Below are positions 26,732 to 32,747 of a DNA stretch of 33,103 nucleotides, piece after piece. The stretch's first letter is position 1, and each line of letters opens with the position of its first letter. The position numbers and the translations under genes are program-made. Origin of the DNA: a virus. Its lineage: Duplodnaviria; Caudoviricetes. Location: positions 1 through 33,103 of IMG/VR virus record IMGVR_UViG_3300030098_002236; one strand, 5' to 3'. Below the pieces are notes generated by a model. The model saw only the letters and a list, made by a program, of their open reading frames with translations. It did not search any database and had not been told where the DNA came from.

Positions 26732-26770
26732 AAAAAAAAAGCGATAGCCACTAATTAAAGTAGCTATCGC
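26732..26770 (-). terminator. Intrinsic terminator of the early operon
   Basis: GCGAUAGCUACU-UUAAUU-AGUGGCUAUCGC followed by U9. Confidence 0.9.
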
Positions 26771-26990
26771 CCATGACAATTTCTTTTGTGAGTTTGTCAA
26801 ACGCACTGCTATTCGTTATTTATACCTGTTATTTATCGTTAGCATTTAATATTTATTTTGCTTGGTACTTGCACTCTAGCAACTGGCAAGTCTAGTTTTT
26901 GTTTTCAAGAGCCAAACTAACAGACTCATGCAATTTCAGTTATTTTATTTTATGTCGTATAACTGGACACAACGTTCAAGATCGACATTC
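26771..26990 (-). ncRNA. Putative structured RNA (3' trailer) with a pseudoknot and a module shared with the hammerhead insert
   Basis: Interleaved stems AUGUCG/CGACAU and CAGUUAU/AUAACUG; 22 nt at 26841-26862 are identical to 29923-29944. Confidence 0.5.
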
Positions 26991-27393: not shown

Positions 27394-27421
27394 AAAACCT
27401 CCTATTTTTTATGTATTTATT

Positions 27422-27488
27422 TAAGTTTCTGTTTCACCTATTTTTAGGCTCATCAGTGAAAAACACCCATTTTTCAGACAAAAACTCA
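27422..27488 (-). ncRNA. Hammerhead ribozyme, type III (HH1)
   Basis: UGAGUUUUUG-UC^UGAAAAA(UGGGUG)UUUUUCA-CUGAUGA-GCCUA(AAAA)UAGGU-GAAA-CAGAAACUUA; predicted cut between 27477 and 27476. Confidence 0.85.
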
Positions 27489-27585
27489 GATTTCGACCTC
27501 TCAGAATCCTCTCTCTTGCATTAAGACGATAAGGGTAAGGGTCTAGCATAGGCTAGATTACCCTACCCTTAAATCGAATCAGACG

Positions 27586-29858: not shown

Positions 29859-30044
29859 ACCTAGACTGGAAAGTGTTTGTCAAAGTAGTACCTTGATATA
29901 AGACTATTCATTTATCTCGTTGAGCATTTAATATTTATTTTGCTCGTCTAACGCGGTTGTACTTAAATGGGAAACCCCTTCTCCCATATACCATAGACTT
30001 CTACTCTCCAGTTTCGCCTAAATTTCATAGGCTCATCAGTAGGT
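29859..30044 (-). ncRNA. Hammerhead ribozyme, type I, with a ~134-nt insert in stem III (HH2)
   Basis: ACCUA-CUGAUGA-GCCUA(UGAAAUU)UAGGC-GAAA-CUGGAGAGU...ACUUUCCAG-UC^UAGGU; predicted cut 29864/29863. Confidence 0.85.
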
Positions 30045-30045
30045 T

Positions 30046-31095
30046 TTAATACTCTAAGTCTTGATGCTCAACTTTAAATTTTGCATAGACTGAAGTATCA
30101 ATTAATTCACTTCTCCTAGTGATAGATTGTCTTACGAAAAACAAACTAAACTCTGGAGTAGCGAATTTCTGAACATAGGCAAGAGCATTTTCAAAATAAT
30201 CTACAACTAGAGATTTTTTTGCACTCTTGATTACATCCACTAAGGCAACAGCAGTGGCAAAACAAAGTCCTACTTTGTCAACGACTTCCACGTCTTTACC
30301 ACTTACTATGTCGCTTAGATTTGGAACATCATCCATTAGTGAAATGAAGTTAGTAAATTCAATTGCTTGTATTTCCCCAACATCACATTCAGCTATTTTC
30401 TGAATGAGTTCTTTAGGTGGATTGGTTTTTAATGTATCACTCAATCTCGACCATGCTCTAGGGCTTGGTTGAGGAGTAGTGATCTTGGCATCAAAATCAT
30501 TAAGAAATTGAGGTTGAAAGTTCAGATAACCTACTACCCTACTATCAACATCATTCTCAATTGCCCACTTATCCCAATCTTGAAAGTCATGCTCAAAATT
30601 AATTAATGAGCATCTTCCAATAACATGACTAGGAAGTTTGTTAGAACCAGCACGATCACTCGCCCTGTTTCCAGCACATATCATTTTCCACCCTTTAGGC
30701 AAAACGTATTCGCCTAAACGCTTTTCATAGATCAATTGACCTACCACAGCTTGAACGCTTGGATGTGCTTGGGCATACTCATCAAAAAATAAGACACCCT
30801 CGCCACTCTTGGGAAGATTACCTAAAAAGGCTCTCTTTTGTCCTCCCTCATCATCTATATAAGGAAGTCCACCAAGATCAACTGATTCATATAACGAAAG
30901 TCTAAAATCAATAAATCCAAACTCTTTTGACTTAGGATTAATGTTATCAACGACTATCTCTCTACTATCAGCTAACTCAGTAGCTAATTGCCTAACTACA
31001 GCAGATTTTCCAACACCTGTTCCACCTAGTAGAAAAGGCGTGTTTCCACCACCTAAAACAGATTTCATAATCTGTAATGCTTGACTTGGTTTCAT
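30046..31095 (-). CDS. MoxR-like AAA+ ATPase
   Basis: Walker A GGTGVGKS, Walker B LFFDE, AGNR, SPRAW. Start set at MKPSQ after the GGAGG RBS. Confidence 0.92.
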   Translation of the reverse strand: MKPSQALQIMKSVLGGGNTPFLLGGTGVGKSAVVRQLATELADSREIVVDNINPKSKEFGFIDFRLSLYESVDLGGLPYIDDEGGQKRAFLGNLPKSGEGVLFFDEYAQAHPSVQAVVGQLIYEKRLGEYVLPKGWKMICAGNRASDRAGSNKLPSHVIGRCSLINFEHDFQDWDKWAIENDVDSRVVGYLNFQPQFLNDFDAKITTPQPSPRAWSRLSDTLKTNPPKELIQKIAECDVGEIQAIEFTNFISLMDDVPNLSDIVSGKDVEVVDKVGLCFATAVALVDVIKSAKKSLVVDYFENALAYVQKFATPEFSLFFVRQSITRRSELIDTSVYAKFKVEHQDLEY

Positions 31096-31167: not shown

Positions 31168-31231
31168 ACCTAGACTAGATCAAGTCTCCTTGATCTAGTT
31201 TCGCAAGAATCTCACTTGCTCGTCAGTAGGT
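31168..31231 (-). ncRNA. Hammerhead ribozyme, type I (HH3)
   Basis: ACCUA-CUGACGA-GCAAG(UGAGAUU)CUUGC-GAAA-CUAGAUCAAG(GAGA)CUUGAUCUAG-UC^UAGGU; predicted cut 31173/31172. Confidence 0.95.
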
Positions 31232-31573: not shown

Positions 31574-31599
31574 GAAATACCTCCCAGTATTTAATAATT

Positions 31600-31665
31600 A
31601 CCTAGACTAAACCCTAAATAATTAGGGTCTAGTTTCGCCAAAATTTCATTGGCTCGTCAGTAGGC
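31600..31665 (-). ncRNA. Hammerhead ribozyme, type I (HH4)
   Basis: GCCUA-CUGACGA-GCCAA(UGAAAUU)UUGGC-GAAA-CUAGACCCUAA(UUAU)UUAGGGUUUAG-UC^UAGGU; predicted cut 31605/31604. Confidence 0.95.
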
Positions 31666-32075
31666 TAAATTGCTAGGGCAACTGGCTCATCTAAAAATAG
31701 ATCATTCTCAATCTCTCGCAATATATAAACCTTGCTAGGGTCTATCTCTATGCAAGTAGTGTTTGACGAAATTAAAAGAGCATCCATGTAAAGGTATTGA
31801 TCTCCTTTAGATTGTTTCAAGTAAACTAAATCACTCTTAAACAGTTCACAAAATAAAGTGTTTAGTCTCTCTCTCGTTGTAACTGTTCCCCACCCACACA
31901 TAGAGAAACATAAGTGAATATTATTACTTAAATTTTCGCTAGGATGATTGTTCTCCCACCATGCAATTTTATTGTTATGCAGAAAAATCTCACCATTCTC
32001 GGTGTAAGTATTTCCCACAGTTTTTTTCTTATCATTAATAAACGCTTTCGCAATTTCTATAGATACTTTTCTCAT
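31665..32075 (-). CDS. Hypothetical early protein (MRKVSIEIAKAF...)
   Basis: Start reassigned to 32075 behind GGAGG, since the longer track start lies inside HH5. LHNNKIA..GWGTVTTRERLN pattern. Confidence 0.8.
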   Translation of the reverse strand: MRKVSIEIAKAFINDKKKTVGNTYTENGEIFLHNNKIAWWENNHPSENLSNNIHLCFSMCGWGTVTTRERLNTLFCELFKSDLVYLKQSKGDQYLYMDALLISSNTTCIEIDPSKVYILREIENDLFLDEPVALAI

Positions 32076-32083
32076 AAATAAAA

Positions 32084-32156
32084 CCTCCAAAGTTTTATGT
32101 TTCTTGAACCCCATTAGGGGATTCTCTTCAGCACGTTAGTTCGTGGACATAGGAGG
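32084..32156 (-). ncRNA. Variant hammerhead ribozyme, type III (HH5)
   Basis: CCUCC-UAUG-UC^CACG(AACUAA)CGUG-CUGAAGA-GAAUCCCC(UAAU)GGGGUUC-AA-GAAA-CAUA...GGAGG; extra AA before GAAA; predicted cut 32146/32145. Confidence 0.7.
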
Positions 32157-32183
32157 GAAATTAATCCCCCCTCTCTTTAAAAA

Positions 32184-32390
32184 TCAAATACAGACCTTAA
32201 CCACATTCTTTACAGATTCAGAATAGCTATCTTGTTCAATTGTTTCCCATTCGCATAAAGGTTCATTATCTTGGGCAATAACTTTCGCTTGTTCTTCGTT
32301 ATCAGCTTTCACTATTTTGAATACCTTATAAGTGTATTCTCCTTGTACTTTGTATCTACTCATCTTCGTTTGTTGATCTACTTTCATCAT
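32184..32390 (-). CDS. Small hypothetical protein ('VKADNEEQA' type)
   Basis: 68 aa, GGAGG RBS; first gene of the leftward operon. Confidence 0.75.
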   Translation of the reverse strand: MMKVDQQTKMSRYKVQGEYTYKVFKIVKADNEEQAKVIAQDNEPLCEWETIEQDSYSESVKNVVKVCI

Positions 32391-32394
32391 TCAT

Positions 32395-32467
32395 ACCTCC
32401 AAGTATGTTTCTTGAACCCCAAAATAGGATTCTCATTCAGCTTGTTAATTCAAGGACACATGGAGGT
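32395..32467 (-). ncRNA. Variant hammerhead ribozyme, type III (HH6)
   Basis: ACCUCCA-UGUG-UC^CUUG(AAUUAA)CAAG-CUGAAUGA-GAAUCCUA(UUU)UGGGGUUC-AA-GAAA-CAUA-CU-UGGAGGU; predicted cut 32455/32454. Confidence 0.65.
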
Positions 32468-32747
32468 TGTGTCAGTAGTTCTTACTTTTCCCTAGTTTGA
32501 TTTTTCAGCTATCGCTTACTGGTCAATGTTCAAGAGGAATTTCATACCCTTAAAGAATCTCAGAGAGATTCACCCACGCCCATTTGTTTTAAGTCAAGGT
32601 CTCGTTCCAACGACTACTGGCTTTATATTTCACCAATACAAGTATTTAAACAGATTACAGCATCATTGTCTAATCATATTTATCTATATATCTGATAGCT
32701 AAATGAGATCATTACCAAGAAGACAATAACCAGTTAATATTCAATCT

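Follow-up and report, generated by a model that had tools for sequence, protein, structure and literature searches.

An apparently undescribed type III hammerhead variant in front of early phage genes, with a candidate Shine-Dalgarno switch

The role of hammerhead ribozymes in bacteria and phages is called open in passages of two reviews (PMC6765202, PMC6155905). The elements described here share with the type III hammerhead (RF00008; PMC3088659) its topology, its three stems, the CUGANGA and GAAA strands, the A15.1-U16.1 pair and the GUC triplet, and, like the clustered phage hammerheads treated in part of the same paper, they are placed between small phage genes. Unlike RF00008 type III, the variant has AA between C11.1 and G12, a fixed 4-bp stem I with an AANNRA loop, a variable loop II and an anti-Shine-Dalgarno (anti-SD) hairpin closing on C17, and there is no Rfam match at either of the two copies, HH6 and HH5, with which this study began. 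The natural core variants given by Perreault et al. 2011 (PMC3088659), in the part of that paper considered here, are A6a, U13a, 2a/2b and A6C; A6a, a core insertion known there with low activity, is the type to which the extra core nucleotide of HH6 and 31 of 114 family members belongs, and that part does not list any insertion between stem II and G12.

Three further systems invite comparison. In the engineered ribosome-binding-site ON-switch of Hartig, which in the portion of the source used here is built on the Schistosoma type I ribozyme with stem I lengthened (PMC3664830), the helix of the uncleaved ribozyme holds the ribosome site and cleavage frees it, as we predict for HH6; HH6, however, occurs in nature, its SD helix continues stem III beyond a bulge and faces competition from two hairpins, and before cleavage the RNA is predicted to be bistable. 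RAGATH-1, the pseudoknot hammerhead (RF03152; PMC12192606, in part), is likewise a variant hammerhead with an extra upstream hairpin, but it is of type I, with a short stem II and its loop in a pseudoknot, whereas the AA variant is of type III with a stem II of at least 6 bp; the RF03152 model gave no match to the variant in the window (defined below) or in 20 loci, and matched a neighbouring element only. A literature search with Weinberg et al. 2015 and the Perreault alignments outside its scope found no description of the AA variant or of a natural phage SD switch. The third system is viral. The early mRNA of phage T7 is cut into pieces by RNase III, altering access to ribosome sites; processing there is catalysed by a protein, whereas at the present locus both the cutting and the anti-SD would be built of RNA.

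The window, that is the whole stretch of 33,103 nucleotides that was analysed, comprises the entire virus record IMGVR_UViG_3300030098_002236, with an estimated completeness of 56%. Virion, primase/helicase and terminase small subunit genes are encoded in it, and the minus strand between 27 and 32.4 kb carries a block of small genes together with genes for an AAA ATPase, DUF3150 and DUF2201, which we infer to be the early region. Direct reading of this block yields six hammerhead-like elements: HH6, HH5 and four with canonical cores. The latter, all on the minus strand, are a type I hammerhead at 31600..31666, a second type I at 31168..31231 upstream of the AAA ATPase gene, an element at 29859..30044 whose best reading is a type I hammerhead enclosing some 130 nt in stem III, and, at the end of the cluster, a type III hammerhead lacking an anti-SD (27421..27489, limits approximate) that has a homologue in locus L351. 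One contig from an RNA run skips 29874-30002, inside the element at 29859-30044. Over part of that element the Rfam Hammerhead_3 model scores 38.3 bits, and the resulting call at 30006-30095 is the only hammerhead in the Rfam search of the window; HH6 and HH5 were missed, and between 32040 and 32540 the search gave nothing hammerhead-like even at E up to 10.

Contigs from runs labelled as marine metatranscriptomes match some pieces of 150-200 nt of the region with zero differences, and the habitat of the phage is therefore likely marine. Cultured relatives were not found: a DNA search gave five short chance matches, and the ATPase was 26-35% identical among the matches listed. Naming a host from a loose genome scan was given up, two real elements among 120 loci being too few; one of the two lies in a Latescibacterota MAG. 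On the minus strand at 26743-26854 the window also holds a weak tmRNA-like match (14.3 bits, E 0.06), covering a tag-like stretch that ends in a terminator hairpin (26772-26739). Between the terminase gene and the leader there is a conserved motif, GTAATGCTCAC, with the form TAATGCTC in 15 of 35 representatives; in relatives it precedes the leader hammerhead by about 300 nt, and in the window it is near 32715. The motif is possibly a promoter or a genome-end signal.

HH6 lies on the minus strand in front of a 68-aa ORF. Hammerhead consensus assigns its cleavage triplet GUC to 32455..32457, with the predicted cut at 32455/32454. There follow a 4-bp stem I, CUUG/CAAG, with loop AAUUAA (32441..32454), in accordance with covariation and the AANNRA loop consensus; an 8-nt core, CUGAAUGA, with an A6a insertion (32433..32440); stem II, with G-C at II.1 and tandem C-G pairs at II.5 and II.6 (32414..32432); the AA insertion between C11.1 and G12 (32412..32413); and GAAA, or G12-A13-A14-A15.1 (32408..32411). 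Upstream of the cut lies the anti-SD CCUCCA (32461..32466), whose modelled pairing with the SD is 1.0. In the fold of the 5' product it is contained in the loop, ACCUCCA, of a hairpin that we call hairpin A (32455..32473), with a 6-bp stem that closes on the cut nucleotide C17 and a 5' arm that imitates the 3' strand of stem III. Downstream, the 3'-product fold and covariation identify hairpin B (32392..32407), which shares sequence with the 3' strand of stem III and has UGGA, from the SD, in its loop. The SD itself, GGAGG, is at 32400-32396 and the AUG at 32390; the ORF (32184..32390), for which no family match was found, lies between HH6 and HH5 as part of an optional cassette that is absent in relatives.

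HH5 (32100..32148, minus strand) was recognised by reading the sequence, and scores 70.0 bits with our model R1, whose underlying alignment contains HH5. It has GUC at 32148-32146 (predicted cut 32146/32145), stem I CACG/CGUG with loop AACUAA, the core CUGAAGA (32131-32125), stem II (32124-32106), AA (32105-32104) and GAAA (32103-32100). Upstream is a GC-rich hairpin (32151..32172, -14.4 kcal/mol) that contains CCUCC (32156-32152), and downstream, as judged from the fold, a hairpin B (32078..32098) with the SD GGAGG at 32088-32084; the AUG at 32075 on the minus strand opens a 136-aa ORF assigned to phrog_554, of unknown function. The initial annotation had pointed to the 8-nt core of HH6, the AA between stem II and GAAA in both copies, a shared loop I AAYUAA on differently paired stems and a CCUCC(A) 5' of each cut that is complementary to the next GGAGG, and all of these are found at the positions given. 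A pattern built from HH6 and HH5 has two matches in the window and none in 100 shuffles, which is a circular test.

The initial annotation had also proposed looking for a variant family, and one was found. A pattern scan of viral contigs gave at least 119 loci, with some 150 estimated, and 96 distinct elements including the two window copies; the pooled loci comprise 114 distinct elements with covarying stems (full flanks required, stems I and II each of at least 4 bp), which fall into 38 clusters at 85% identity. Covariation was computed on 73 of 101 distinct core sequences. In this set, which was filtered on pairing of stems I and II and for which the search patterns prescribed most core letters, 98.0% of cells are paired compared with 78.1% after shuffling, both sides have changed in 10 of 14 pairs, and the covariation score reaches 0.547, compared with 0.159 for shuffled and less than 0.1 for slid controls. 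Stem III is 93% paired, and neither it nor the variety of pair types was filtered on. In loci L077, L083 and L096 the variant comes directly after a terminator-like GC hairpin, the U run of which overlaps the 5' strand of stem III.

As to class, three stems surround the junction with the open ends at stem III, the type III topology. The core C3-U4-G5-A6-N7-G8-A9, its letters preset by most search patterns, is exact in HH5 and in 83 of 114 elements and has one extra nucleotide in HH6 and in 31 of 114; the GUC cut triplet (112/114), the A15.1-U16.1 pair and the H17 cut site, all partly preset by the patterns, are present. The one consensus feature that fails is G12-A13-A14 directly after pair 10.1-11.1, where AA intervenes. 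The RF00008 gathering score of 48.5 was never reached, with 25-26 bits in two of 20 loci and no match at HH6 or HH5. Because both this consensus position and the Rfam threshold fail, we file the family as a type III hammerhead variant, missed by Rfam and apparently undescribed. That the AA variant cleaves is in our judgement highly probable.

Given the CUGA core, the AA insertion goes together with a stem I of 4 bp capped by an AANNRA loop, and the association is seen from either side. When AA was fixed and a 14-nt stem-loop I left free, 79 of 97 distinct hits formed stems (the 18 without were left out), and 78 of the 79 had an AANNRA loop; when AAUUAA and the CUGA core were fixed and the insertion left free, 84 of 92 formed stems (eight without were left out), and the insertion was exactly AA in all 84. 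Near-invariance extends to the G-C pair closing loop I (114/114) and to the C-G pairs at II.5 (113/114) and II.6 (114/114). Loop I, AA and pairs II.5-II.6 are thus conserved together with a loop II that varies in both length and sequence, and we take the C-G pairs of stem II to be the probable docking site of loop I, with the AA bulge setting the geometry. Watson-Crick pairing of the loop I UU with AA can be discarded, as loop positions 3 and 4 vary and AA is constant. Selection experiments have found a one-base insertion before G12 to be tolerated. PMC10085705, in the part considered, takes the G12-A13-A14 block after stem II as uninterrupted.

The exception to this association is a sub-variant, present in 6 of 17 loci, that has only one A and in which C3 is altered. 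It occupies the leader position in L561-L564, L567 and L559, and also occurs at L371:788-840, L418:953-1006, L429:1676-1730 and L430:2899-2951; its core reads U-R-UGAAGA, without C3 and with a single A before GAAA, and most members keep the anti-SD, the partner being shifted in L564 (CCAAA with UUUGG). Possibly the core change is compensated, or else the form does not cut. An apparent chimera at L416:1480-1525 joins a type I 5' half to a single-A variant 3' half. The same phages also carry a sister type III form (L383-L387, L414:1327-1382, L415:1192-1248) with a 5-bp stem I, an AAUUAA loop, a 2-nt bulge three pairs further up stem II, a GUA or AUA cut triplet and, in some members, A6a.

We now turn to the anti-SD. 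CUCC occurs within 17 nt upstream of 83 of the 114 elements, and in a descriptor search covering 110 distinct hammerheads in 80 loci around ATPase relatives it precedes 28 of 29 variants, compared with two of 34 other type III and none of 47 type I hammerheads. (A scan for an anti-SD before any type III core was too loose, with three real elements among 120 loci from 2 of 64 parts.) The CUCC variant is the first hammerhead of its cluster in all 25 loci that hold one. CUCC usually stands in the loop of hairpin A, whose 3' arm consists of the stem III strand plus C17 and which competes with stem III. Hairpin A is found in 69 of 83 CUCC-bearing elements and in one of 31 CUCC-free ones, with a dozen covaried stem variants; by unique context it is present in 36 of 46, against 17.4 in permuted sequences (maximum 27), and with at least 5 bp in 33 contexts against 7.0, the loop CUCC being kept. 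It halts at C17: in 40 of 51 contexts there is no Watson-Crick extension past the cut, and the mean extension is 0.22 against 0.43 when permuted. GGAG is itself unable to covary, and the pairs flanking it surpass permuted partners by a narrow margin, 2.2 compared with 1.93 (p=0.008, without correction for relatedness). CUCC as an SD for the opposite strand was rejected, a start codon following in three of 69 cases, none of which opens a 30-aa ORF.

Hairpin B, with the SD in its loop, is present in 55 of 77 contexts compared with 31.9 permuted. As a feature specific to a switch it must be rejected, for it is general, occurring after 22 of 28 type I, 19 of 26 other type III and 20 of 22 variant hammerheads. 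The SDs of early genes lie in hairpin loops showing GGA in 61 of 76 unique contexts (L351-L430; in the window at 31590 and 31105), and such loops could be operators for a GGA-loop-binding protein.

The core and the anti-SD module are separable, as is evident from three groups. Locus L381 combines both hairpins with a canonical core; in a GC-rich subfamily (L119, L126, L157, L174, L192) the SD lies within stem III itself, with U-A replacing A-U beside CUCC; and 31 of 114 members have no CUCC. With CUCC locked away in six more, it follows that the variant core does not need the switch. In a CUCC-free subfamily (L003, L004, L018, L032 and relatives) the cut-site octamer AGATAGTC is repeated 16 nt upstream.

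According to the initial annotation, stem III of both copies hides the SD. For HH6 the SD is indeed paired in the model, but the helix is an extension past a bulge, outside stem III proper. For HH5 the claim fails: its CCUCC is locked in the -14.4 kcal/mol GC-rich hairpin and the modelled anti-SD:SD pairing is 0.0, as it is in all six elements of the HH5 type (HH5 and five counterparts). The GC-rich hairpin is likely a 3'-end guard for the 68-aa mRNA; it was rejected as an intrinsic terminator, having no U run after the stem and not being among the terminators predicted on the minus strand. In L415, a positional counterpart of HH5, the arm is altered to CCACC; in L001 and L008 a leader of the HH6 type is joined straight to the gene downstream of HH5-type elements, and one contig skips 32131-32461. 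HH5 is best read as a duplicate on an optional gene cassette, its relic anti-SD now part of a guard hairpin.

How far the HH6 type could act on translation was examined with secondary-structure energies, which leave aside the tertiary core, kissing loops and Mg2+. With the active fold constrained at 37 C, CUCC pairs with GGAG (above 0.5) in 62 of 69 elements, and the modelled accessibility of the HH6 SD rises from 0.03 to 0.78 upon cleavage. The median cost of reaching the active fold is 3.1 kcal/mol, rising to 7.2 without the anti-SD, and is 1.0 kcal/mol in 34 other type III hammerheads. The binding of the products to each other, for its part, weakens from -10.0 kcal/mol without the hairpin arms to -3.8 with them (n=63; HH6, -12.9 to -6.5).

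The uncleaved state is less one-sided. The energies of hairpin A and the SD helix differ by no more than 2 kcal/mol in 44-50 of 63 elements at 20-37 C and in 31 of 63 at 10 C, at which temperature hairpin A is favoured by more than 2 kcal/mol in 29 of 63, a result that counts against a switch; in HH6 the SD helix is favoured by about 3 kcal/mol. In unconstrained precursors SD pairing exceeds 0.5 in 31 of 69 at 37 C and 20 of 69 at 20 C, HH6 being predicted OFF, and the values depend on the span folded, with pairing above 0.5 in 21 of 95 for one span and a median of 0.48 in 83 for another. The uncleaved RNA is therefore predicted to be bistable in these models rather than simply OFF. The initial annotation's proposal of a natural ON-switch keeps its footing in the active-fold model of HH6, where the SD is held, but it took no account of hairpins A and B or of the bistability of the precursors.

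From the observed anatomy, covariation, coupling of loop I to the insertion and position of HH6-type elements, the following sequence of events may be proposed. During transcription hairpin A would form first and mask the GUC cut site, and about 60 nt later the SD would emerge; the CUCCA loop would pair with UGGAG and the hairpins would swap strands, an exchange by which stem III forms and the SD becomes hidden. The variant core would then cleave, with the AANNRA loop docked near the AA bulge and the tandem C-G pairs of stem II in substitution for the usual loop-loop contact. Finally, hairpin A would re-form at the new 3' end and hairpin B would re-form also, so that the products part and the SD becomes accessible. 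The first early gene would in this way have its translation tied to cleavage, and delayed by it. We put at about even the chances that HH6 self-cleaves and acts as an SD-gated cut-and-release switch, with HH5 a duplicate that only cuts. Against this reading count the possible descent of all members from a single ancestor and the low activity published for A6a in one case. The full proposal, a natural switch without protein that comprises a new tertiary module, cuts only after capture of the SD, ejects the SD by refolding and times the first early gene, is advanced more tentatively.

Alternatively, these elements may serve plain mRNA processing, in which cutting is constitutive, hairpins guard 3' ends and speed product release, and SD pairing serves only to stabilise a weak stem III, changing translation little. 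Such an account suits HH5 and its five counterparts, and also the 31 of 114 members without CUCC, the end of hairpin A at the cut and the ORF ends that lie close upstream in 8 of 10 elements with CUCC only; clustered phage hammerheads have, moreover, been proposed to cut long transcripts (PMC3088659, in part). A guard hairpin, however, needs no fixed loop, yet CUCC is kept across differently paired stems and is rare beside other hammerheads. Furthermore, only 5 of the 67 elements with hairpin A have a same-strand ORF that ends within 80 nt upstream, so that a guard would in most cases lack a message to protect, and the upstream leader is mostly non-coding with ordinary folding (median z -0.3, n=35). 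The same folding values, together with the lack of any Rfam family above threshold in 20 loci, led us to reject a structured non-coding RNA in the leader. We consider plain processing a credible but rather unlikely account of the HH6 type.

An occupancy sensor would reverse the direction of control. A ribosome or a GGA-loop-binding protein on the SD would block strand exchange, and the RNA would be cut only when the first gene is untranslated. In the models, blocking the SD raises the active-fold cost from 3.1 to 5.25 kcal/mol (HH6, 1.5 to 5.0); the SD lies a median of 9 nt from GAAA in variants compared with about 22 in other type III hammerheads; and in the stepwise fold of HH6 hairpin A comes first and is kept until the SD emerges. 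That the HH6 SD is predicted to be captured upon emergence nevertheless speaks against a sensor, as does the want of a known binding protein or host, and the idea appears distinctly improbable.

It is very unlikely that the elements do not cut at all and are instead a hammerhead-derived repeat, structural or prone to recombination, through which small gene cassettes are shuffled. The two core deviations of HH6, the loss of C3 in the single-A sub-variant and the cassette between HH6 and HH5 that is missing in relatives could be so understood, and contigs from RNA runs span the predicted cut, although contigs cannot show ends and may be DNA; the stems, however, covary as RNA structure, hairpin A ends at C17, and the elements are in register with canonical hammerheads of the same clusters. 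Least probable of all is that the released leader acts in trans, the anti-SD loop of its terminal hairpin binding ribosome sites of host or phage mRNAs in the manner of small RNAs with C-rich loops, for although most of the 5' product does not code for protein and a CUCC-loop hairpin would form its end, the cis SD 60 nt away already explains the loop and the folding of the leader is not unusual.

The variant stands in front of early genes in this phage and in dozens of relatives, and of the two copies first flagged only HH6, the first, is predicted from its modelled folds to be of the SD-switch type. The AA variant marks a class missed by Rfam models, and a conserved 2-nt insertion by the general base G12, together with a fixed loop I, widens the known hammerhead fold. 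It also offers a short two-state element with natural controls in the same genomes, namely HH5 with its locked anti-SD, the 31 CUCC-free members and L381. If the proposed switch is true, synthetic switches could adopt its hairpin, which stops at the nucleotide of the cut and would drive the products apart, and phage ribozymes would have a testable job.
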